From NCBI GenBank assembly GCA_021432655.1, contig MU271355.1:62001-84195 (forward strand): a stretch of 22,195 nt of DNA. Reading direction: 5' to 3'. This DNA comes from Atractiella rhizophila (Eukaryota). Of this stretch, positions 1,377 through 20,659 are shown in pieces. The notes under the pieces were generated by a model. That model saw nothing but the letters and a program-made list of their open reading frames with translations. It had not been told where the DNA came from and made no database searches. The number at the start of each line of letters is the position of its first letter. Position 1 is the stretch's first letter. The translations under genes and the position numbers were made by a program.

Positions 1377-4148
1377 TCGTTGCAGGCAGCTCCTTTGCAC
1401 GAGAATCATGATGAATATTGCTTCAGTTTACAGATGTATATACTTCAGAACTGGTTATTATAGAAAGCTCAAGAAAGATTGAGATAGGGAGCAAACTGAA
1501 AAGCAAAGCTGGTTGGATGTTTAAGGGACCTTTGTGAACTTGTCGGGAAGAGGTTGGAGAGCCGTGGGAGGACAGTTTGAGAGTGTGCGGCGAGCCTTTC
1601 GACTGGTTCAAATTGGAGTGGTGGTTGTTGAGGAAGCGTTGACGAGCCGCTCTCCCGCCTTCCACGCTTTCCAGAGATTGGAGTGTCACTGTATCTTTAC
1701 TTTCAAAACGACATTCTGATGATTCTACACCTGTATTTAATGTGCAATGTCATGCAAATGGCAATATTGAGCGTCCACACACCGTCCTCCCTCTCCTCCC
1801 CTTCCATCCTCCGCTGTCGTTCAGATTCCCTTCCGTTGACCTCGCGATTCAATCCATCCTTCTGATCGTCGCTCCTTTTTCTGTTCGCCGACACTGACCT
1901 TCCATCCTCGTTCAGCTCCTTTCCCTTCGCCTCCCGTTCAGCATTGCTGCCAATTTTCGTCCTCCACTCGTCCTCGCTCTCCTCCCCCGTTCGCCTCTCC
2001 GTTCGCAATTCGTTCGCCTTCCGCTTCTAGTACTAATCAAGTACTAATCGAGTCAATAGTATTCAAGTTGAGATCGAGTCCGATCCAGCTGGTGTCGAAT
2101 CGAACCCATACCATAAGCACTCTCTCTTCTCTCGTAAAAGCCGATAACCAAGTCGAAACATGAAAAATTGTCGAAAAAATACTTCGAAAATAACTTAACC
2201 CCAAAAGTGAGAATCCGGTGACTTCGAGTAAAAACACGTTTAAAATCGAAAATGCGTCTGTGGACTGACTGCCCGACATCGCTGCTGTAATAGCCGTAGT
2301 TTCGCACGAGTTGCATCAACAATAGTTGGGGAATACTTCGGTTTGGTGTTTCGGGGTTGTCTGTCTTCAATTCCGGGATCGGAAAATCAAAAAAAAGTCG
2401 AATTTTGATTTAGAGAAATGAAAATCTTTAGTGCCCTTTTAAAGACTTATTGCTCTGAACCCAGGCCTCTAGACACCTCTTAAGTGACCACGGAGCAAGT
2501 GAGCAATCAGCAAATTCCCTGGCGCTATAGCGTCTATCCTAGGAACACCGTATAGACCGTTCCTAGCAGCTCCTAGCAGCCCTATGGACCTTTGGGACCC
2601 TATGGCAAACTTCTAAAACCGACCTTCCACAAACTTTAACACCACCCATGACTCTAGAGTGACTCACCGCATTTCCCTATTATTGCCTAAGGGGTCAAAG
2701 CGGATTAGGGGCTCTTCGCTCGTCCAAATTTTTTTTACAAGTTCATCCAGTGTAAATCTCAATCACCTCATTCTCAAGGTCTGCCTGCATTCTGCCTGCA
2801 CAGATTTCCTCAAACTGTCTCCTCTCTCCCTTCCTACAAGCCTTCTCCCCGCCTCCAACCCTCCCAGACATGATGTCTCCAAGCTACTGGCCACGTCACC
2901 CACCTATCTCGTGCTCTGACCCGGTGTCTCAATGGCAACAAAGACAGGAGTCTCGAATCTGAAGGGAGCTGGATTATGTAGAGTGATAAGAGCGGTGATA
3001 TTACTGAGAAGGGTAAGTGGTTGATTTCTTCGGCATACCGTCATGGGTGGGATTTGTGATGCTCTCAATCAATCCTGCACTGATACTTCATTTAGCTCAC
3101 ATCTCCTGCCCATCCTCCCCATTACGGCACCTCAATTATCTGCAGTATTCTTGTTGCACAACTACCCTATCGCAGCTTACGACCTCGCCAGTTCCTCACT
3201 TGGATTCATAGTATTGTTCTGTCTCACTTCATGAGGTGAAGGACTGGTCGGCTTTCACTTGTCTATTTTGAGTTGAATGTGCACAGGTCAGGAAGGACTC
3301 CAGGAAATCAACAGATGGTCATTGAGCGAATTTAACTGTTCAAGCGGCTGTCATGGAGTTGGGTATGCTCATCATACTATTGGTGGTCCTAATGTGAGTT
3401 CTATCTACATCCCTCTTAACTCACATTTACCTCTAAGCGATGACGTTCTCTTAGGCATTAAAGTGGTCATTTGTAGGCTCGTTAGCAGTGATTGGATGTG
3501 ATAAGACAGAGCAGACAAGTGATCCGGTTCCTGCAGCACATGATAGTGTATGCTATAGTAGTTTTGCTGATTAATATAGTGGGGTTTATTGCATTATATA
3601 TATGTCACAAAGCATGGGAAGGCAGCCTACAAACGAAATGAGACAGCAAACAAGGTGACTCACCCATAGCGTGATAGCCCCATAGCGCGATAGCAGCACT
3701 CCTAGCTGTCTAGAATAGAGCCCAGGTGACAAAAACCCTATGAGCTCCTATGAGCTATCATAGCGCCTATAGCTCCATAGACGACCATCCGAAAAGTGCT
3801 GATGAGGAAGGTTTTATTAACGACACAACCAGGAACAACACAATAGGCGGCTAACCCTGAAAGCTCACAGTGTAACCACGACCTTTTCTTTTACCCCCTC
3901 AACGGAGTAGAAACCTCGATTTTGCTCACGTAGGACCTGAACCATTACTCTAACCCTTATGCTGTTTCGGCTCTTTGATTGACTACAATATGTCCACGTG
4001 ACAATAGATTCTAATGGGATAACTGCCCACAGCGCGAGCTTTCACCGTTCTCCAAAAGATCGAAGTGAGAACTCGCCTAACCCTGCAAGTAGCAGAAATA
4101 GTGCAATCTCAATCGGCGTCCTTGTAGTCGCGTGTGAAATGCCCTTTC

Positions 4149-4216
4149 CTCGTACGAAAAGTATGCTGTCTTGCACGAAAGTTTATTTCTCTTGGAAAGG
4201 TTATTTCTCTCATACG
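4149..4216 (+). repeat. Degenerate tandem array of ~21-bp CTCGTACGAAAGGTTATTTCT units (3-4 copies)
   Basis: ctcgtacgaaaagtatgctgt / cttgcacgaaagtttatttct / cttggaaaggttatttct / ctcatacg. Confidence 0.7.
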
Positions 4217-4515
4217 TCCAAGCACGCTGATCCAGTGCTGGTATCGCTCTGACTGGGAGTGCGTTCGAAGGTGTGAGTCGAGGTCTATATGAAATTCGAA
4301 CTCATTTTGTCTATTTGCCAACGCTCTGGGCACTCAGGTGTTCAAACTGCTCCGCGGTTGTGTTTGGTTTCTAGGCTGACGCGTTGAGGTTTGGCTTGCG
4401 AGGGTTCTGCGAGCCAACGAGAGCTTGTGAGCTTTGAAAGCACCCCAAACGAGGTGGTAAGCAAGAAGAAAGGCTCACCCCAAAAGCAGTTCCGAAGTCC
4501 TAACAGGAGGAGAAA

Positions 4516-5979
4516 CTAGCCGTTTCGTCCTGATGCTGTACCGACCACCACACCGCGACGAGGAGCGGCTTTGGCAACTGGTTTGCCTCTTTTCGGTTGA
4601 CTGAACTCATGTTCATGGATGTCTGAGTGTTGGCGGTTATTCGTGGCCTCAAAGCCGCGGTGGGTTATCTCGTTTACCACGACCTGCGCCTTCATTCTGA
4701 TGTAGAGTTCCCAGGAGATTGATTTCCATCTGCCCGCCATCATTATGAATTCTATACCTACCTTGAGAGCCCACAGTCTGCTTGCGCCGCCAATTCTGAA
4801 GCTATGGCCCGACACGTTGTCAATGCCTCGTGATACTTCCGTGTCCTGAGACCATATGTTCTTGCATCTATCCAGGAAGGCTCTTTTCGTGAGCGGGAGA
4901 ATGGTGTGTTCCTTTTGCGACCAGTAGGCGAACAATGGGTCTGAGTCGCTAAGCACGCAGTTGATGCGGAGGTGGTTGAGAATCGCTTCGAGCGAGAGTG
5001 TGTTCCCTATTCTCGCTTGCGGGATGCTGATGTCAACTGGTGTCCCTTTGGACACTTTGTCTTTTGGCAGGCGGAGGCGGATGTAAGGGAGACCTTCTAA
5101 GTCGAATTCTGGGAAAATTTTGTCCCGCGTCATGTGCGTTTTGGGTGAGAACGATGGTTTCGATTTCGGTAAGAGTTCGCCGAGTCTGCAGAGCCCGTAC
5201 AGCCCTGTGACGACGGCAGCCCAGACGCAAGCGTCAAAAGGTTTGAGAGGTCCAGATTCCATTCCAGGGACACCATCATCTCTTGGGAGACAGGTGCTCG
5301 CGGTCTAACAGGAACGTGAGTCTGTGACTTTGGGTTGGAGTTGCTTACTCTTTTTTGTGCGATTGACCCATGATATTGCTTATTCCTCGCAACCATTTCG
5401 TTAACACTACGGGCTTATCCTTCTCCCAGGGCCATGGGGCACCGTGCAGATCATGCCATGATCTGAGTAGTTCTCGAGGGTTTGGGTCCCAATGGTTGTG
5501 AGGGGGCGGAACGCCTGAGGGTAGATATCCGGAGGGCCCGTTGCCCAGAGGCAGAAGGATACGAGGTGTTGTTGGGATTTGATGGGAAATCTGTCCTCGA
5601 AGGGTATGCAAAACTTGTTGCAGAAATAGTTCCATTTGGCCAGTGCCGAGCCGTAAGAGTTCCAGGTGGATTCGGTGAGGGAGGTCTCGTTTGCAGCGTA
5701 CGCTATGGCTCTGAATACGGGCACGTCGAGTAGGAGATGGGAGAAGTTGTCGACGCCGCGCCATAAGCGTAGTCGATCTCCAGCTCGGCAGGGGATGAAC
5801 CTATCCTCCAACTCTTGGTTGAATGAAGCATTCTGTCTAGCGAAGGTCTCGTAGGCTGTGAGGTCACTGTCTAGTTCTTCTCGCGTTCCCCATGGTGGAG
5901 GATTAGGCCTTTTTGCTCTCCTAGGGCCACGTTCCTTGGGTTTGCGTTTAGAGATGCTTGCCTTCCGTTTATTGTTCAT
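4516..5979 (-). CDS. Tyrosine recombinase (YR), ~470 aa, with one 44-nt intron (5305-5348) and two frameshifts (~5467, ~5241)
   Basis: Catalytic motifs CRLGEL (R), LPKDK (K), SGHSFRIGGA (HxxR), GRWKS…LYIR (W/Y). N-terminal STWNSYGSALAKWNYFC…TLENY/LRSWHDLHGAPW. Start context is ACCACCATG at 5979. Confidence 0.9.
5305..5348 (-). other. Spliceosomal intron D in YR (44 nt, phase 2)
   Basis: GTAAGC…ACTCAC…CCTGTTAG; removal gives …HKK GA|A PRAPVS…, a YR-typical segment. Confidence 0.8.
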
Positions 5980-6110
5980 GGTGGTTTCAAGATGGGTTTC
6001 ACTTGCACGTGCCTATTTGCTTTCCTCGCTCTTGGAGGTCTCAGTCTACACTTGTGAATTGAATGATTGAATGTTGATGCTATGTCTGATAGATACATTT
6101 AATGTGATTG

Positions 6111-7900
6111 CTATGCTAAAGTACTAGGTACTGGAAGGGAAGAAGGATTAGAGTGGCTTATAATGAACTTGGATACTGGTTGTGGAACCGGTATGGAGAC
6201 GAAAAGTTGGTATTTGAGATGAGAAAAGGAGCCTCTTGAGGGTCGGTCCGCTGGGTTCTCTTCGGAAGGGATCCATGTGGGTAATACGGTAACATCGAGT
6301 CGTTGTGTAACTTCGCTCAATCTCTTGAGTGACTGGTTTTGTTCGTGGTTCCTTGCTCGCCACTTACGGAGGATTCCTTCGACTCCCTGGTTGTCCGTGT
6401 TGACTATGACGGCTCGATGGTCCTTCTTGAGAGTGATTCTGTTCCTGCTCAGGAGCCATTCGAGTAGGAGTACCCCTAGTTCTACGGCTAGCATTTCACC
6501 CCAGCCTATCTTCCTTTCCTCTCTGGTGGTTTCTGCCCAAGTCCAAACGCTCCAGTGTTCGTGGATCTGGACCGCTATGCCGTACGCCAGGGAGGCGTCT
6601 CCGAACCAGGTTAATGAGACTGGTTTGTCGAGTCTGGTGACTTTGCGGATGGGTGGTCCCTTCGTTAGTTGTTCGTGCCAGTAGAGAAGATCTTTCCGGA
6701 CTCCTTTGGGGAGATGTAGTGTACCGCGCTCGAGGAGCCAGGGATTGTCTTCCCCTAAGGCGTGCGGGAACGAGGCGATGAAGTTTATGAGATTCGTGAG
6801 ATATGGCTTGCACTGGAACATGGCGAAGGCGACGTGTTGGAGGTAGCCGTGGAGGTGGGTGGCTTCCGCTAAGGTCGCTCTAAAGTTCGGTTGGAGCCAC
6901 GTTTGGACCGTGAGGAGTGTTCTGATGAATTTTTCTCTCGGGAGTGAAATGGTGTGTTCGCGGAAGTCCCAAACGAAGCCGATGAACTTGACGAGATGAG
7001 AGAACTTCGCACATTTCTTGAGGTGCCATGGTATCCTTAGGCCGTCGAGGTCGCTGAAGAAGTCTTCCTCTGTTCCCCAGACCTTGAGTGATTTCGACCA
7101 GATTACTTCGTGGTCGTCTACCCACTTCCAGATCTTCTTCCACCTCTTTTTCCTGGCTATGGCTACCCAAGCGTCGTCTACACTACCGAATACGCCTGGT
7201 AGGGATGAGGTTCCGAACGATCCTACCACGTTGATCCAGAAGTTGCCGTTGTAGTCCTGTATGACGAAGGCCCGCCTTGACTCTTCATCGAGAGGGATGG
7301 TTTTGAAGGCTTCCGCTATGTCGATAGTCATTGCTTCGGCGTCTTTCGGGAGCTGTGCAAAGTCGAGGAGCGCCTGTGAGAAGGCAGTCCATTCTGTGGG
7401 AAAGTCGTCAGAGTCGATGAGGTCGTTTACCGAGGGCCAGTCTTCTCCAGACTCGTCTAGACCCCCTTTTGAGGCGTTCTCTATGAGCCTAAATTCGTCC
7501 ATGGTACCGGCCTTTGGGACGGCATTGAGCGGGTTCGACCTCCAGCCCTTGCCCCCAAATATTTCGGAGACTTCCTCCCGGTTGTAGGGTCCAAAGTTCC
7601 TCTTCTTGGCGTTCTCCTCCTGGATGTAGCCGTGGATGAAACGCTTCCTGGCGTCGTCGACTGGGGTGTTGGGTGGGGTGAATGTAGTTTGGGTAGTGTC
7701 GCAATGCCGACGTTGAAGCCATTTCGGATGCCGTGCACGACGTGTTGGAATTCGTTTAGGAGATTATACTTCTTTAGTTGCTTGCGGAAATTAGATGCGC
7801 TGTAGGGGGTAATGATCGTTCGTGCTGGGTCGTTGGGGTTCGTGATGTTGATTCTCGGTTGAGGGACTTCGATCCTCTCATCTGGAGGATCGGGGAGCAT
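6111..7900 (-). CDS. pol: Reverse transcriptase-RNase H (pol) of the YR retrotransposon, ~596 aa, with one 1-nt-deletion frameshift near 7695
   Basis: RT motifs IDIAEAFKTIP, SFGTSSLPGVF, KWVDD, FIGFVWD. RNase H motifs FGDAS, GEMLAV, NTDNQGV, ENPADRPSRG. The N-terminus (ITPYS…GFNVGI) is in the 7481..8050 frame and shifts to TQTTFTPPN…EENAKKRNFGPY…AVPKAGTMDEFRLI, which is continuous with ORF 6111..7502. The ATG at 7900 overlaps the gag 3' end. Confidence 0.9.
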
Positions 7901-10900
7901 GCTGACGAGCTCTGCAGTCCTTGCTGCCGTGCAGGGAGCATACGTGCTTGTCTCTAGGGCAGGCTGTTCCGTCTGCCAGCAGGTTCTTGCATCCGTCTTC
8001 TCGCAGGTTAAAGATTGCGCAAATCTGTTCACCGCTTGAAGCGACGACAAGTGCCTTGGGTCTCTGATGCCTTCCTGAGAGTCTGGAGGGGAGCATTTAA
8101 GTGAGCGCCGTGCAGTTGAAGCTGTGACCTACCGCTTGGAGCCTCCGACGACTGTTCCTTCCTCTTCGCACCTGTTCCAACCGTGGTTGGATGGGGCTCT
8201 GCCACACCTGGCGCAGAAGTCGTGTTTGGAGGGTCGACCTCCTTCTCTAGGTTTCGATGGTAGGTCGTTGTCTGGTCGCTTACTGGCGTTTCTGAGTTTG
8301 GAGGAATCTGATGGTCCCGCGTGGTACGAGCCTGGGTGGAGGTGGTTTCCGGGATTACTCCCCCTTCTCCCTGCCTGCTTCATAAGGTCCTCGAACACTC
8401 TAAGCCTAGCATCCAAGGAGTCTCCTTGCCATAATCGAAACTGCTCGGTCACCTGGGTGTAGATAGTGTCGAGGTATTCCCAGGCGCCAAAGTCGGACGT
8501 CGCCTCGTGCCTGGTTTCGTGGTCCCTTCGGGCCTTCTCCTGGGTTGCCATGATGAGATTCCAGTTATTGTAGTCGGAGGCTCCGTTTAGAGCGTACTTT
8601 CTCTTGCACCAATCCTTCATGGATTGGAGTGCTCCGGCGATGTTCATCAGGAATGTTCTGTCTTCCCATTCTTGCACGACTTTGATGTACCAGTCCATGC
8701 CTTTCTCAAAGTCGGGATATGACGGCCTGTCGTCTCTCGCTCTGGCCCGTTCGATGATCTTGCGAGTTTTGTCGTCGGACAAGATGAGTCGGTCTCCTGA
8801 GTCGAACTTGATTTCTTTCGACTCGTCCAGCCCGTACTCTGCAGAGAGTTGTTTCCACGCCGTTGGTAGGTGGGCAGGGATGTAGGCGTGCGGATTCTCG
8901 TGTATTTTCTTTTTGAGCTCTGGAACGTCGAAATCGACTTGGATGGTGGGGACGGAATTCTTATTGATGACGGAGTACTTCCAGTCTTTCTGAGATTTCG
9001 CCTCCTTGATTAGTCTCTTCTGCCGAGAACGCTCTGACTCTGTTGATGAGTCCGAGTTAGAGGAGGGATCTGATGCATCTGGTCCGCGGCTGGTGTGCCG
9101 TATGTTCTTTCTCCTCTTCTTCCGTCGTCTTTTTCTCCCTTCCGCTTCATCCCCGCTAGAGTGGGAATCAGGAGCGCGATGCTTTCTCCTTGCTGCGGGC
9201 TTTCCCTTCAACGCCGTTGCTTCTGGCTGGTCTATAATTTTTCTCGTTCTTCCGCAGTCGCCCACAGGGTGTCCTTGCTGCTCCTGTGGCTGGGCAGTCG
9301 CGCTGGCTGAAGGGGGGTCATGTGGCTGCGTCTGTCGTCCCTTCGCCGGATGGGGTGTTTCTGGACCTATGCCGGGGGGGTTGGCTTGTGCGAAGTTCTG
9401 GTAGGCGTGGAGAAATTGGGCCCGGGTTGGGGGGGTATTGCCGGGATTTGCGAAAGGTGGGATGGTGCCCGCTGCTTGCACAAAGCTTGCGGGGAATCCT
9501 CTGATGGGGGCATGCGGCGACAGCAAGGGCTGTAGGGGCTGCGTGGGTAATGCTGTGTCTCCCCACCCACCCCCAGGCAGTTGGTGTCCCGGGTTTTGGT
9601 GATTTGGTGGGTTGACGGGGGTGGGGTTCTGGTGGCTTCCCTGGTCAGCGTTGGCTCCTGGTACCTGGGGTCTGAGCCGATTTACTGCGGTCCCTTCTCG
9701 GGGGAGCCAGTTAGACTTAATGGTGGTTGGGAGGGGGCCGCCCCAGTTATGTGGGGTTCTAGTTGATGGTGGTGGAGCGCTGTCGTGGAACCTTCCGCCA
9801 GGGAGAGGATTCGCCGTCGCTTGTGCAGCAGAGTTTGGGGGGAAGCTGAGGAATTCTCCCCCAGTGTGGGGGTTTGCGATTGGGTATACGGCACTGCAAC
9901 CCTCGCGCCTTAGTACGGGCACTCCCACCACGTGGAGCTGCTCACGATGTTGTAAGGATGTTGAGAGATCCCTCCCTAATATAAGGGTTCCCGACAGGTT
10001 GTACGGTACTACAACCGTCACACCTTAGTAGAGGCACTCCCACCACGTGGAGCTGCTTACTGGACAAAGGCGTCGTTGCGAAGACCCCCCCCAGTGTGGA
10101 GGCCCGCCGACCCGCCCTGCGGTCTCGCCACGGAGAATGGCCTGTATCTGAGTCCGGCATTGGAGAGGTGATGGGAGGGTAGGGTTGGCTCCTCTTCCCT
10201 CCCCTTCCCCTTCTGAATCCTCCGGTAGTTCTTGTCGAATGAGATGCGCAGGACTTGGATCTGTTGCGCAGATAAGTTGCGCTCCTCGATGCGACGGTTG
10301 AATTCTTCCGGTTCGGTTGCTTCGAGGACGTATTGGATTGCTTCTACTGCATTCTGCTGTTCCTCTTCCAGTTCCTCCTCCCTCTCTTCTTCCCGTCTTG
10401 CATCTTCCATCGCTTCCCTCTTTACTTCCAGGCCCAGTTCTTCTGGTGTATGCCAGGTGTAGAATACTGGCATACCCAATTCCGTCCATCCTACTTGAGC
10501 CGTTTCCGCCGCTGGTGGTCTAAAGTTAACTCTTTCGTGGGGTCTCTGGCGCCAACGGGAGCTGCTGTAGAACAGGCAGTCGGTGGTGTCCTGCCAGGCC
10601 ATGACGTTGGCGAGAAGGACCCATTCACCAGCGAATTTGTTGTAGGCATAGATTCGAGTGAATTCACGGAGGGGGAGGCCTGATCTGAGGACGTAGCACC
10701 ACATGTCAATGGCTCGCGATATGAGTTGGGTGCGGAACTTCGAGGTGCGTGGCGTGCCGGTTCTGCGAGCCACAAAGGTTAGGATATGTTCTGCTTGCTC
10801 CTCGATGTGGAGTGGGGAATAAACGTTGTCCCCAAACTTGGAAGCGTCCGAAGGGTCAGAGAGAACGTCTACAAACTTGTAAGGCAGAGATGGAAGTACG

Positions 10901-11223
10901 GCGTCTGCGAAGTCTTTCTGATTCAGACTGGAGAAAGGTTTCCAAAGTTTGTCGAAGGTATCAAAGAAATGCGTCGTTTTGGCCTCGTTCACGTCCACGC
11001 CGTCCCTTTCTGCCACCTCTATGAGACCCTTGTGGCAAGGGTCCATGAGAGACCCGGGTTCAGCAGAATACGGAACGTTGGCCAAGACTGAAAGTTCGTA
11101 GAGAAAAAGAGAGTGTGGATTGGAAGTCTCCGGAACGAAGAAAGAGAGACCCAAATTCATCTCTAGCAAGGTGTTGCGACTCATCTGACCACCTTCTGCT
11201 GCCATTTCCTTCAAGAAGGTCAT
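7878..11223 (-). CDS. gag: ORF1 / Gag-like protein of the YR retrotransposon, spliced: join(11223..10061, 10008..9946, 9893..8133, 8082..7878), ~1063 aa; start may lie further upstream
   Basis: Four ORF-track pieces (10057..11289, part of 9942..10160, 8129..10021, 7878..8096) join in frame on removing three GT-AG introns (52, 52, 50 nt). Product has an unknown N-terminal region, E/R coiled coil, KGKGRE, Pro/Gln-rich repeats, basic RKRRRKKRRK, CARC-x6-H-x4-C knuckle, and a C-terminal ICAIFN…GC…C…HVCSLHG Zn finger. Confidence 0.8.
8083..8132 (-). other. Spliceosomal intron C of ORF1 (50 nt, phase 2)
   Basis: GTAGGT…GCTCAC…CCCCTCCAG; removal gives CG|A and joins the CCHC knuckle to the ATG-poor C-terminal Zn-finger exon. 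Confidence 0.85.
9894..9945 (-). other. Spliceosomal intron B of ORF1 (52 nt, phase 2), twin of intron A
   Basis: GTGAGC…TACTAAG…GTTGCAG; 45/52 identical to intron A; removal gives TC|T in frame. Confidence 0.85.
10009..10060 (-). other. Spliceosomal intron A of ORF1 (52 nt, phase 2)
   Basis: GTAAGC…TACTAAG…GTTGTAG; removal gives CA|T and restores the frame. Confidence 0.85.
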
Positions 11224-11326
11224 GTGTTGGCTTTGGTGGGTGTGGCTGCAGTTAGAGAACGTGTTCTCGGGTTGGGGAGTTGGTGACAAAGAGCGGATGC
11301 GGTCGAAGAGAGTTGAAAGGAGAGCT

Positions 11327-11393
11327 CTGAGAGAGCTTGGGAGAGCGGTTGGTTAATGAGTGTTGGTGATCACGGCGCGACTCAGTGACTTAC
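11327..11393 (-). other. Candidate 5' intron of ORF1 (67 nt; alternative acceptor at 11336)
   Basis: Perfect GTAAGT donor, ATTAAC branch-like site, pyrimidine tract and CAG. The downstream frame is open into ORF1 (ALLSTLFDRIRSLSP), but the ATG at 11403 is out of phase by one base. Confidence 0.55.
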
Positions 11394-11442
11394 TCAAGTG
11401 CATTGGACTAGGACCAGAATTTTGGTTTCTGGGCTTTTAAAT

Positions 11443-11508
11443 GTTTATTTCTCTCGTACGAAAGGTTATTTCCCTCGTACGAAAGGTTATTTCTCGTACG
11501 AAGGGTTT
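11443..11508 (+). repeat. Tandem array of ~21-bp CTCGTACGAAAGGTTATTT units (3 copies)
   Basis: ctcgtacgaaaggttatttcc / ctcgtacgaaaggttattt / ctcgtacgaagggttt. Confidence 0.9.
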
Positions 11509-14289: not shown

Positions 14290-15168
14290 AGTTGGACAAT
14301 GCGTTGATGCGCTGCAGGCATGACCTGACCTTTCCCCTCACTTGTCTCGTTTAACATGAATTCGTGGGCTTCAGTCCCGCGCATCTTCTCAGGGAAATGA
14401 GGGCGGAGGAAACATTGATTTCACGGAAGGATGATCAGGGGACAGTCTCAATCGTACGGGTTCATCTCATCACCCCAGTAACATTACGACAAGGCATTCC
14501 GATCCACCTCTCCATTCTTCCCTCTTTCCTTTCTCGTTTACCACCACACACTCCGGATCACATTTATCTTGCCTCTTGAATTCTGAAGCGAGGGTAATGG
14601 GCCATCGAAATCGACTTATTTCTCTCTGGAAGGTCTCGAAAATGCAGTCGGAGGCGACGACACAATGAACCTTTCCATTTCCATGACTTTGGGGGAGGAA
14701 AGTATTATGGTAGCCTTTGGGGATTCCAAACATCATGCATCCGTGGATTTGGACGACCTGGACGTGAAGCCCTTCACTTGTTCGTGTTCCAGATAATCGC
14801 TCTGAGGTCATCTTCTACCCCATCGCCCAATACTCCAAGAAGGAACAATGTTTCATTCTTATCAGTGAACGGGGATCAACCATCCCATCCACCGGTCTAG
14901 GGACCACCATCCAACTCGAGATCTAGATATTAGTTCGTGCCCTATCGCAAGGCTACACAACGATATCCTCTCTCTCATCGTCGAGGTCCTATCATTCCGT
15001 AAATACGAAAACATCATCGAAGGTCGTAATGGATACCTCGTTTCCTTCCAGCGACTTTCTGCCGTCTGTCAGCTCTGGAAGGCTGTTTCAGTCCCATGTT
15101 TGGATGAAGATATTTCTATGAAGGAGAGGCATGCTCGCTTGAAAGTGTACCTAATGTTGGACGTTTCT
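14290..15168 (+). pseudogene. Decayed, 3'-truncated F-box protein gene, paralogue of the gene at 17017-19452
   Basis: Shared blocks across several frames: HLSILPSFLSRL vs YLSILPSFLSRL; YFSLEGLENAV vs CFSLECLENAI; CPIARLHNDILSLI…VCQLWKAVSVPCL vs CSISRLPIELLSRI…VCQLWKSVGAPYL. It has stops and frameshifts and ends at the copia junction. Confidence 0.8.
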
Positions 15169-15171
15169 CCT

Positions 15172-16636
15172 CTGCAGATCCTCCGAACGATTTGACGGGC
15201 GCAGGAACCCCATACATCGGTGTGGATCAGTTCGAGCTTTTCCTTTGCGCGTTCGGCGGGGCCGGAGGGGAATGGGAGTTTGCGTTGTTGACCAAGTAGG
15301 CATCCGGTGCACGGTGAGTGGTGATCCTCATCTCCCATCTCTAGTCCCCTGACCATTCCCTTTTCTTGCAACAGCTTGAGGCTCCCGCTCCCGATGTGAC
15401 CTAAACGACAGTGCCAGACATGCGAAGAGGCGGGCTTTGCGGCGCTCGTGAGTTTTGAGCTTGCGCTTTCGTTCATGATTACTGAGGCATCCAATCTTCG
15501 CAGTCCGCTTTCAGCAACGATTTCAGCGACCACAGTACCATCACCCTTCACCACCTTCCCTTGCCTGTCTGCGGAGAATACAACATCGAAACCGCGCGTG
15601 TTCACCTTGTCGGTGGAGAGGAGGGCGCAGTCGATTTCGGGGTCATAGAGAGTGTCAGTTATCTCAATTTCTCTTTCTACTCCTTTGACCTTTGTTAACA
15701 CTTTGACAGTGCCGATGCCAATTGCTTGTGTGACGATGCCGTGGGACAAGCGGATGCAACGTGAGTGGGGCTTGAGTGAGAAGCATTGATGTGGTCCGTG
15801 GCAGCGGAATTGACATAGATCCCCTCACGGTGTATCCTTTCCCCCATAACCGTGTGGAAGGCTTCTGATATTCTAGCTTCTCCAGGTTTCTCTCCTGCTT
15901 CTCTCTTCTTCTCGTGGCAGTCCCATTCCCAATGTCCTTCAATGGCACAATAATGGCATTTCCCATGCTTCTTCTCGCTTTTCAGTTTTCCTCCGCTACT
16001 CCCTCCTTTTGATTTGGTTATGTTGAGGATGTGAAGTCGGAGGTGGCAACGGTGTTGAAGGAGGAGACGACCTTGATCCAGGACTGTGGGAGTGAGATAA
16101 GTAGGAGCATAGGGATATCATCAGGTCAGTTTGGTCTCCCATCGCTTTCAACTCCTGTCCCATGGTTCTGATTCGGTTTACATGCTCCCGCATAGATTCT
16201 CCTTCGACATAACGCTGTGTAAAGCTTCTGGCGGAGCAGTACACACGCTTGTCGGTCCTGGGTCTAGTAGAGCTCCTTAAGCTTGTCCCAGACCTCTTTC
16301 AGTTTCTCAACTCCGATGTCCCGAATGTCAGTAAGTATATGGTCTTTGCAGGCTTCGATGATGATGGAGTAGGCTAGGTATGCTCGCTTCATCCAATCCC
16401 TTTGTGACGCTTCGATTGTGTTGACCCTCATGACGTTCTTTGGTTTCGCTGCCTCCGCTTCCTCGAGACTCCCTGGCTTGGGATCCGTTCCTGCAACGAT
16501 CCCCCAGCAGTTCCTTCCGAGGAGCTTAGCCTGGACTCTAAAGGACTCTAAAGCACCAGGTACGGTAATTCCCCCGTCCTTCGAGTTTCGCGATAGTCGA
16601 TGCAGCAATGAGCGATGTGTCATTACCTTCAGACAT
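15172..16636 (-). pseudogene. copia gag-pol polyprotein remnant with multiple frameshifts
   Basis: ATG at 16636 (MSEGNDTSLIAASTIAKLEG). Pieces lie in ORFs 16264..16647, 15996..16244 and 15069..15749. A 10-nt duplication at 16534-16553 shifts the frame. Confidence 0.85.
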
Positions 16637-16699
16637 CCTGGGCTCATGTCGATGCAGCAATGAGTGATGTGTCATTACCTTCAGACATCCTGGGCTCAT
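16596..16699. repeat. 52-bp tandem duplication covering the copia PBS remnant and gag start
   Basis: 16596-16647 and 16648-16699 are identical except for one C/T. Confidence 0.95.
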
Positions 16700-17016
16700 G
16701 AAGCGATGGAGAACTTGGCTAGATATGAACATAGCTCTCGCTACGATAAATGTGCGAGTGCTGCAAAGTGCGACATAACAAATAAGTATATGTTGCATTC
16801 AGTATGTAAGGAAACTACATTACCTGCGAAGTGTGAGATAACAGATAAGTATGAGTCTCGCACTTGCAGGTGAAGGGCTTTTATAGCTAAGATCCCTGTG
16901 ACAAAAGAAAAGTTGGCACAGTTCTGGAACATGCTCGACGAAAGTGGAAACATGCAAGTGCGCAAGTGGCGAAAGGAGGAGGCGTACGATCTTGTCAATT
17001 CTCGCCCTACCCCATA

Positions 17017-18825
17017 TTATTCTCCCTCTACCACCCTGCTCCTGGCCCTCTCAAACTTATCTATTATGCTCCTGACCCTCTTATCTATTGTGCTCCTGGG
17101 CCTCAATTGCCACTTATCTATTGTGCTCCTGGCAATACCAATCTCTTCCTCAAGCCACTCTCCGAAGAACAAACAAAGTTCAAGACTCTTACACGTCCTT
17201 TGGATGTCAACCACATCACCCTTCTTCTCTTCTCTCCTCCTCCCAAAGAACCAGTCGATAAAATCTATAAATCCTGACCAATCCACCACACAGAACTCAA
17301 TCCGTATTGAGTGGATTGCCTTTGCATTTTTGAGACTATCAAAGAATTGGGGGTAAATCAGATTTGAAGTTTCCTCGCCACCATCAAGATCGAGGTGGGT
17401 GAGGTGTATGAGGTGCGATAAGTCGAGTGGAGTAGGTAGGATGGAGGTTTTTCCGTCGGCAGAGAAAGGCGCAAGCTTGACTGTGAGATTTTGTAGAAGG
17501 GCGGGTAGAGGGGCGCTTGAAAAGGAGGGAGGAAGTGGACACATATTGCTGAGCCTGAGCTTTTGCAGGGACTGTGGGAGGGAGAGTGATGGGAGAGGCG
17601 GGTATTTGTCAAGATCAAGGGACATGAAGCCGTGTCGTAATTGAAGACCCGCCGATGCCGAAGTGTAAGAGTCCAAGTCCTCCACGTCGTATGCTGTGAG
17701 GTGTTTGATCCTGTCACCCATCCTCCGCATAAAGTTTTCGACCTCCTCCTTCATCCACTTTCTCCAACCGCCAGATCTAAATTTTATGTCGTCCACCCAT
17801 TTCAAGCCCTCAATTGCCTTCAATATATCCTTTGCCTCCTCCTCATTCCAATTTGCATCCATGAAAACAAGACTAACTCTCGGTGAACCAGCGATGACCC
17901 TTTTCACCATCTCAACAGCACAATTTTGATAACTCTCTAAGCTAAGCCTCGTCCACATACGTCCACCGGCACGGTACACGTTGAGGAGAGTATTTTTCTT
18001 CTTGATGTACCGAGGTTCCTCTAAATAAGGGGCTCCCACTGACTTCCATAGCTGGCAGACCTTACGCAGCTTCTTGACCGTCTCGAAACTTAGGGTTGTT
18101 TTGGGCGTATATCCTTCTCTGCTGAAATAGAATATTCGAGAGAGTAGCTCGATGGGTAGTCGTGAGATAGAGCAAGTAGTATCACCTGGTGATCGGGAGA
18201 GTGAGAATTGGATGATGAAGGCCGCCCTCGCACTGCATGGAATTGACGATGGTTCGAAATCACTCATGGGTATAAAGCGCGCAATTCTTGAAGAGTATAC
18301 GGCGACAGGGGCATAGATGCCGTTAGAGCGATGTTCTGGCAGGAGATGAAACATGAGAGTGAATACGGCGGTACCACGTCGACCAAGAAGAATACGAAAT
18401 GTGTGAGTGAATGGTTCTGCCAGTGATGGCAGATGATCCGAATCGACAGGTACAGGCTTAGCCAGAACAAGTGTCCCATATTTTTTCTTTCTGATGCTTA
18501 TAACTATGCATAGATTCGCGACACCGTTTTCGATGGCATTTTCGAGACATTCGAGGGAGAAACAGGACATCGCCGATAACGCCTGCGAAAAGTGAATTAT
18601 GGAGAGCTCATGTGGAACAACAGCAACCCGAAGCATGCGAACCGATGGACATAGGCGGGATAGGAAAGAGGGAAGAATGGAAAGATAGAGCAGACTGTTG
18701 TTCCCGAAGTCTGATTGGCTGAAATATTCCGAGTAGTTGAAGAGGTTGATAAACACTTTTGACGCTGGGCCTTGGTGTATTGGTTGTTCTGGCATCGCCT
18801 GGGACAACTGTGGCCCTGAGTTCAT
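17017..18825 (-). CDS. F-box domain / LRR-like protein (602 aa); probably the 3' part of a longer ORF starting up to 19452
   Basis: Long open frame with F-box ISRLPIELLSRIF…LRKVCQLWKSV followed by LRR-like units (LPQSLQKLRLSNM, LPALLQNLTVKL, LSHLIHLTHLDLDG). Confidence 0.8.
   Translation of the reverse strand: MNSGPQLSQAMPEQPIHQGPASKVFINLFNYSEYFSQSDFGNNSLLYLSILPSFLSRLCPSVRMLRVAVVPHELSIIHFSQALSAMSCFSLECLENAIENGVANLCIVISIRKKKYGTLVLAKPVPVDSDHLPSLAEPFTHTFRILLGRRGTAVFTLMFHLLPEHRSNGIYAPVAVYSSRIARFIPMSDFEPSSIPCSARAAFIIQFSLSRSPGDTTCSISRLPIELLSRIFYFSREGYTPKTTLSFETVKKLRKVCQLWKSVGAPYLEEPRYIKKKNTLLNVYRAGGRMWTRLSLESYQNCAVEMVKRVIAGSPRVSLVFMDANWNEEEAKDILKAIEGLKWVDDIKFRSGGWRKWMKEEVENFMRRMGDRIKHLTAYDVEDLDSYTSASAGLQLRHGFMSLDLDKYPPLPSLSLPQSLQKLRLSNMCPLPPSFSSAPLPALLQNLTVKLAPFSADGKTSILPTPLDLSHLIHLTHLDLDGGEETSNLIYPQFFDSLKNAKAIHSIRIEFCVVDWSGFIDFIDWFFGRRREEKKGDVVDIQRTCKSLELCLFFGEWLEEEIGIARSTIDKWQLRPRSTIDKRVRSIIDKFERARSRVVEGE
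17056..17132. repeat. Three ~20-bp repeats encoding RS(T/I)IDK at the F-box protein C-terminus
   Basis: cttatctatt(a/g)tgctcctg at 17056, 17080 and 17113. Confidence 0.85.
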
Positions 18826-19452: not shown

Positions 19453-19640
19453 TTAAGTGATGGAAGAGAACAGCAATTGAAGCGCAAAACCCATGACATC
19501 ATAAATCCTTTCGGGTGGATGAGTCACAGCTTTGATCGATTACTGTGTTCGAAACGCCTCGAATGTTGCTATGATGCGCAAATTACGCAGCCAATCTGTT
19601 GCGAAATTGCGAAGTCGCTTCATAATTGTGCACCCTTAGT

Positions 19641-19980
19641 TTCGTGCGAAAGGTTATTTTCTCGTACGAAAGGTTGTGGTCGCTCGCACGGAGGGTAATC
19701 CCTCTGGTCCGGCTTCTAGTGCGAAAAGGATGGTTGTGAATGAAACAGTCATCTCACGAAACGATCATATTCAATAATTCAGGAGATTACCCTTTCATAC
19801 GTACCGAAGGCAAGGTCCTGCACAGTACGCCTCACTGACTCAGCGATGATGACTGCAGGAGACGTTTCCGAGATCAGCATATCCAGCGCTCAGAACACTC
19901 GATTTTAGCGCAGTAGAATTGTTTGCTCAACGGCAGGGTCATCCCTCAGAAAGGAGGTGAATAACCTTTCGGGCACGAAA
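19641..19980. repeat. Same 21-bp repeat: two direct copies at 19641-19675, further degenerate copies, and an inverted copy at ~19959-19980
   Basis: ttcgtgcgaaaggttatttt ctcgtacgaaaggtt … gaataacctttcgggcacgaaa (reverse complement tttcgtgcccgaaaggttattc). Confidence 0.7.
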
Positions 19981-20659
19981 GCATTGTGAAACAGGAAGGC
20001 GTGGATCCGCAGAATCATTTGCAAAATTAGTGTCGTTTGTCGCTCGTCATCAACATCATCCGGCCACCTTACGCGTCGCAACGTGGCGCAGGCTGGCGCG
20101 TTTGGTCATGCGTCAGTATTCAACAACCGCCGTTTTGACATGTCTTTCAGGCAAATTCCTATGTTCTAATGTGCACCCCAGGATGTGTGTTCTCATTCCT
20201 ACCTATTACGCTCTCTTTCGAAACAGAATGCCCAAGAAATCATTTGCTACGTGCACGTGATCTGCGACCTTCATGGATAATGACGTAAATTTGCCACCCG
20301 GCAAGTGGCCGGCATGAAGTTGACGACGAGCAACAAACGACACTAATTTTGCAAATGACTGCATGGAATTTATTCCAAAGCACCATCTTCGATTTTGTTC
20401 CCATTTACTAAGGATATAGGAGATTATCGGTCGTCGATCTCGTACGAACGACTAAAGGACATGTGCCCATTTCATTCTGTGATCCCTGATGCAGCTAAAG
20501 AGCCCAATCGTGAAGAGCCGAATCGATCGCCATGTACAAGTAGGCAACTGCAACTTAGCCCAAAGAATCTTCGCGTTCGTGCAGTGAATGACCGCTGATG
20601 AAGTGAATGCACCAAACAGTCGAGGGGCACAACGTTTGTTTATTCTCCGTTGCCCGCTC

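Follow-up and report, generated by a model that had tools for sequence, protein, structure and literature searches.

The window, a 22,195-nt stretch of Atractiella rhizophila DNA, contains a Ngaro-like tyrosine-recombinase (YR) retrotransposon whose first open reading frame (ORF1) is interrupted by an array of short exons and near-identical introns, and this array grows by duplicating a 115-nt exon+intron block through a shared intron core, a multiplication that is directly seen in other copies of the element. The best explanation of the whole, to which a probability of about 0.72 is given, is that a Ngaro-like element keeps its spliced introns, duplicates exon and intron together, replicates from unspliced RNA and carries intron cores that are constrained. 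The element offers a compact test case, with five spliced introns kept in every copy examined, an array of two introns in some copies and three in others, a visible crossover and measurable constraint. Its features, by position in the window, are as follows.

4217 to 11439, minus strand: Ngaro-like tyrosine-recombinase retrotransposon copy, 7.2 kb; its ends, TAAAAGCC...GCGTGCTTGGA, are common to copies and the flanks are unrelated
10061 to 11223, minus strand: ORF1 exon 1; unspliced, the frame ends after 388 aa at a TAA inside the intron A donor
10061 to 10123, minus strand: unit U1, homologous in its core alone (28/63 against U3; 20/30 in the core)
10060 to 10009, minus strand: intron A, 52 nt, GTAAG...CTAAG...TAG, phase 2; joint 10008/10061 in runs X8 and X6
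9946 to 10008, minus strand: symmetric 63-nt exon, unit U2, phase 2-2; present twice in the C577 and C2 copies
9945 to 9894, minus strand: intron B, 52 nt, GTGAG...CTAAG...CAG, phase 2; joint 9893/9946 in X8 and X6; removed in gene model P0026
8133 to 9893, minus strand: ORF1 exon 3, Pro-rich linker and gag-like region
9831 to 9893, minus strand: unit U3, the start of exon 3; 39/63 against U2
9768 to 9830, minus strand: unit U4, directly continuous with U3 (no intron) in five of five copies; 35/63 against U3
8083 to 8132, minus strand: intron C, 50 nt, at the end of ORF1; joint 8082/8133 in X8 and X1; it contains an in-frame TAG at which the unspliced ORF1 ends
7878 to 8082, minus strand: ORF1 exon 4, Cys/His-rich tail, putatively zinc-finger-like (no Pfam match)
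6111 to 8128, minus strand: RT/RNase H region, in two frames in the window copy; weak Pfam match to RVT_1, E=0.071
4516 to 6012, minus strand: tyrosine recombinase gene with an HSFRIGG motif, E=2e-24 to protein P0025; small deletions break the window copy
5305 to 5348, minus strand: intron D, 44 nt, in the recombinase gene; joint 5304/5349 in X8
4407 to 4478, minus strand: intron F, 72 nt, in the 3' terminal region and in the 480-bp short units described below; joint 4406/4479 in X8 and X1

By the definitions in the excerpted text of PMC3783388, the element would be classed as Ngaro-like, an assignment made by layout and Agaricomycete similarity. Fungal Ngaro elements (order DIRS) carry ORF1/gag, RT/RNase H and, downstream, a tyrosine recombinase in the same order as found here, and have been reported in basidiomycetes, to which the present host likewise belongs (PMC3783388). 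The closest named RT relatives are Agaricomycete proteins, one of them named Tyr recombinase domain protein, and P0025, the recombinase match, also bears the name "Tyr recombinase domain protein"; a protein of 99% identity carries the NCBI annotation Atractiella rhizophila. These RT and recombinase relatives, together with the splice joints, bear out an earlier note on this DNA, made from the letters alone, which had placed the introns inside a retroelement. The recombinase is not recognised by Pfam alone, and a search of solved structures returned no significant match to it; the ORFs scanned have no Pfam match to a methyltransferase domain, in a search that missed the recombinase too. Small deletions distinguish pol and the recombinase gene of the window copy from those of other copies; a deletion in pol splits the RT/RNase H region into two frames, and the copy is probably not autonomous.

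Fungal Ngaro elements possess A1-B1A2B2 repeats (PMC3783388), which do not occur in the assembled copies of the present element: split direct repeats of the form A1-ORFs-B1A2B2 are absent from the window copy, and the 5' repeat follows none of the 16 3' ends among the matches listed. Self-BLAST revealed no DIRS-like inverted terminal repeats or internal complementary region, and exact inverted matches between the ends reach at most 7 nt. Between the terminal regions 11395-11435 and 4217-4390, an imperfect 15-nt direct repeat of the 5' end is present at 4377-4363 (14/15), and complementary words of 9-11 nt were seen by eye; these short imperfect matches are possible template-switch signals. Units of ~480 bp, in which a 60-nt spacer separates the first 155 nt of the element from the last 265 nt, occur at unrelated sites on contigs C178, C177, C691, C13, C74, C5 and C535 (loci L036-L041 and L053), and the spacer is missing from the window copy. 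The units are either solo A2-B2 repeats or non-autonomous derivatives and, because they resemble solo A2-B2, the split direct repeats may be collapsed in the assembly. In their 5'+spacer+3' composition they are also similar to the SIRE of VIPER (PMC6681497). In one X1 contig, an 11-nt match to the 3' terminus of the element is joined directly to the 5' end (11439), with different sequence further up; this is possibly a circle or B-A junction, perhaps of a related family. The element sits within a degenerate 21-nt tandem repeat (11445-11507 and 4125-4216) without a target duplication, and a similar motif lies near 19640 (19637-19674).

Introns A and B possess GTRAG donors, a CCACGTGG palindrome, a CTAAG placed 15 nt upstream of the end and YAG acceptors, are identical at 45/52 positions, and are ordinary U2-type spliceosomal introns. 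The branch-point consensus is CTRAY, from which the CTAAG of both introns differs at its last base. The earlier description of twin 52-nt introns flanking a symmetric 63-nt exon is accurate; the exon is of phase 2-2, and both segments are spliced. Four of the eight listed sequencing runs were examined, with X1 and X2 lacking coverage of the A/B region, and both 52-nt skips were present at the predicted bases as CT..AC joints in two of the four (X8 and X6). X6 is RNA on record, where the joints are carried by 1-2 contigs at a depth of 3-4; X8 has no library on record and is of unknown kind. Shares of 0.05-0.10 are uninformative about habitat. One 667-nt X8 contig has 225 letters before the 9893 piece, consistent with a single molecule that carries both joints. 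The suggestion that the 63-nt exon could be skipped in frame found no counterpart, as a 9893/10061 joint did not occur in the four runs, two of which cover the region, and contigs drop rare forms. A 52-nt GC-AG skip at 4729/4782 (4730-4781) was seen in one X8 contig, within the coding sequence of the recombinase and next to the HSFRIGG motif; it is probably a cryptic splice and was left out of the five introns.

Introns A, B and C each carry an in-frame stop at their phase-2 donors, and the long ORF1 protein therefore needs all three splices: ORF1 encodes 388 aa unspliced, 409 with A removed, 996 with A and B removed, and 1063 with A, B and C removed. The NCBI gene model P0026 reads through intron A and removes intron B. 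The N-terminal region (388 aa) has no Pfam match and its atlas matches are all <0.9; homologues of the N-terminus were absent from proteins of 679-2000 aa among 8000 candidates, which is weak evidence. In the part of this region compared with C577, nonsynonymous change is 0.027 and synonymous change 0.159. The exon 3 protein has two relatives among 1.84 billion representatives, and because both carry the same species label they supply no outgroup for the array.

Five copies of the element cover the array: the window copy, C581, C802 (71% identical), C577 and C2. The array contains two introns in the first three and three introns in C577 and C2, where the extra block is exactly 115 nt, or one exon+intron. 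In these copies the duplicated exon matches at 63/63 and 62/63 positions. Among the sites that discriminate A from B, the middle intron of both C577 and C2 agrees with B at position 3 and with A at the 8 others, and the crossover in this lineage falls within intron positions 4-28, where A and B are identical. The extra block and its chimeric intron confirm the earlier proposal that introns here multiply by exon+intron duplication. C577 and C2 constitute one lineage, but their insertion sites and 5' flanks differ, so the form with three introns has been copied since its origin. The acceptor of the middle intron reads AA in both copies and is dead, and for this reason the extra exon would probably be removed within a 167-nt intron, leaving the protein unchanged; the 167-nt splice is a prediction, with no RNA from a three-intron copy identified. 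The alternative acceptor would be an in-frame AG located 33 nt inside the extra exon. Introns A and B probably go back to an earlier event of this kind, either an unequal crossover or a template switch by the RT that the element encodes.

The 63-nt unit had been counted four times. Ungapped comparison supports U2, U3 and U4 (U2/U3 39/63, U3/U4 35/63, U2/U4 32/63), with lower values for U1 (U1/U3 28/63, U1/U4 27/63, U1/U2 21/63). U1 is homologous in its core only, matching U3 at 20/30 of positions 17-46 and 2/16 of positions 1-16, and U1/U2 is near background, with 120/869 windows scoring as high. Units U3 and U4 are homologous: their identity is beyond that of codon shuffles (p=0.00005) and exceeds all 869 in-frame windows of the same ORF, with one unrelated C-rich window at 34/63. 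U3/U4 is at least as old as U2/U3, and distances between the window and C802 exons are star-like.

The U3/U4 junction (9831/9830) is intron-less and the spacing falls there from 115 to 63 nt, as had been noticed before. A lost intron and an older intron-less repeat are at about even odds as its origin. As an addition to the main explanation, tentative and a little short of an even chance, an intron may once have been present between U3 and U4, or U4 may have been copied from spliced RNA, with a partly spliced template and RT fixing the intron-less junction. The element encodes an RT, duplication of the C577/C2 type requires an intron on either flank of the copied exon, and the similarity of U2 and U3 extends to the final bases of the units (10/17; gapped end score 19 against 8-14 for U1/U2), as if an intron had once followed U3. 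However, the end of U1 also aligns with that of U2 when a gap is allowed, and no locus covering introns C, D or F shows a precise loss. The precise loss proposed in the earlier note is not established, given that an intron occurs at the junction in 0/5 copies, including C802, and that the relative age of U3/U4 fits a 63-nt repeat older than the intron, which explains the junction equally well.

The introns change approximately four times more slowly than synonymous sites, whether copies are compared with one another or A with B. In post hoc, non-independent comparisons on few related copies, the window and C577 differ at 4/72 intron sites outside the splice signals against 81/350 synonymous sites (five flanking segments pooled; Fisher p=0.0003), and A and B differ at 5/36 sites outside the splice signals against 7.5/15 synonymous sites. 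Against C2, A and B together differ at 4/104 sites, whereas introns C and D together differ at 13/90 (p=0.011). Intron 1 of C802 matches A at 48/52 positions, compared with 91/119 for U1 and U2 (p=0.018); C802 intron 2 matches B at 37/51 and is no more conserved than its flanks. Folding of the whole introns does not go beyond shuffles (z = -0.1 and -0.4), the core hairpin has a z of about -1 and is not shared by C802 intron 2, and long-range pairing of the introns is no better than in shuffles. The palindrome is altered in 3/12 introns. The intron cores are probably under selection beyond splicing, with an unspliced-RNA signal or splicing control as the likeliest cause, and would be selected as a cis signal. 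It is conceivable, if unlikely, that the twin introns carry a signal that chooses unspliced RNA for packaging or reverse transcription. Such a role would account for the retention of every intron in a retroelement, for the fourfold slower change of the twin introns relative to synonymous sites and for the persistence of the duplicated block after acceptor loss, the element multiplying its own signal by exon+intron duplication.

The conservation could also arise if retained intron A were translated, its frame being open with exon 2 from an ATG near 10159 to give a shorter Gag. The frame is open through intron A in 5/5 copies, the P0026 model reads through A and splices B, and 12/23 intron changes fall at third positions of the frame (p=0.048). 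Outside the splice signals the proportion is 10/19 (p=0.065), however, and a frame of 52 nt will often be open by chance; in C577 a stop separates the ATG from the intron, C2 and C802 are shifted or stopped upstream, and A is spliced in both covering runs, which together make translation an improbable source of the constraint. Slightly less probable again is that intron-less 63-nt repeats came first, that one junction gained an intron, and that gene conversion copied it to the next. This accounts for introns A and B being more alike (45/52) than U2 and U3 (39/63; Fisher p=0.003), but one old duplication followed by constraint also leaves introns more alike than exons; orthologous introns of different copies are equally slow, so a recent transfer is not needed, and the sole event caught copied the exon along with the intron.

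A retroelement copied through RNA would be expected to shed its introns. Intron C is retained by 2/2 other loci that cover it, intron D by 6/6 loci spanning it, some of which have internal deletions (a seventh locus is truncated), and intron F by all 16 loci aligned, where one is interrupted by an insertion; no precise loss of A, B, C, D or F was found in the copies and loci covering them. Under the main explanation the element would replicate from unspliced RNA and use spliced RNA as mRNA, replication through RNA being assumed from the RT gene. Movement as DNA via the recombinase, in the manner of a Crypton, would also explain the absence of intron loss, and the window copy has neither split direct nor inverted repeats, but close copies retain long open RT/RNase H frames and the 480-bp units leave room for repeats collapsed in the assembly, so that this mode of movement is quite improbable. 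An introner or introner-like element inserted twice, as the earlier note had also considered, would fit near-identical introns of equal length but is rejected as very improbable, since the 12 exact motif matches in the genome are all in element copies, the 6 two-mismatch genome matches (control 3) share just 4-10 of the next 33 bases, 39/39 metagenome matches share at most 14 of 33, and near-identical introns in unrelated genes were not found.

Copies of Penelope-like elements also keep their introns, and the significance of this retention is called unknown in the excerpted text of PMC8557442; those elements possess a telomerase-like RT and a GIY-YIG nuclease, whereas the present one is a YR element whose multiplying introns lie within coding regions. 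Retroviruses and LTR elements divide their RNA into unspliced genomic RNA and spliced mRNAs (PMC10309623), and the same split may operate here, but the pieces removed are host-like introns of 44-72 nt and three splices are needed for the long ORF1 protein. The intron-gain mechanisms listed in PMC3443670 include tandem genomic duplication, intron transfer and introners, and that paper distinguishes true gain from the duplication of introns that already exist. Here too, tandem duplication adds to the number of introns, as a duplication of an exon and not de novo gain, and the duplication mechanism itself is ordinary. A reporter intron in DIRS-1 is spliced or retained depending on its position (PMC7192593). 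The present element differs from the Ngaro elements of PMC3783388 in possessing five spliced GT-AG introns, two of them twins; the word "intron" does not occur in the excerpted text of that paper, and the excerpts of PMC13465315, PMC3212892 and PMC8547959 contain nothing on Ngaro introns. Among the titles and abstracts listed, none was found on introns in fungal Ngaro elements or on such a multiplying array, with most subscription papers and Repbase outside the scope of the search. Goodwin and Poulter reportedly described spliceosomal introns in some fungal Ngaro elements in 2004, and earlier publications may already describe introns in fungal YR elements.

Elsewhere in the window, degenerate Copia-type gag/pol remnants are present at 15069-16671, with a 52-nt tandem duplication at 16596-16700. 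Imperfect inverted repeats at 14495-14650 and 18531-18697 enclose these remnants together with an F-box-like ORF, and the region 14495-18697 is perhaps a DNA transposon that carries both. A MITE-like feature at 20015-20358 consists of a pair of 56-nt inverted repeats that are 86% complementary and 232 nt apart. In the wider genome, a second YR-type RT family, about 33-35% identical, is present on contigs C548, C76, C713, C310 and C35, four of which have 716-aa open frames.
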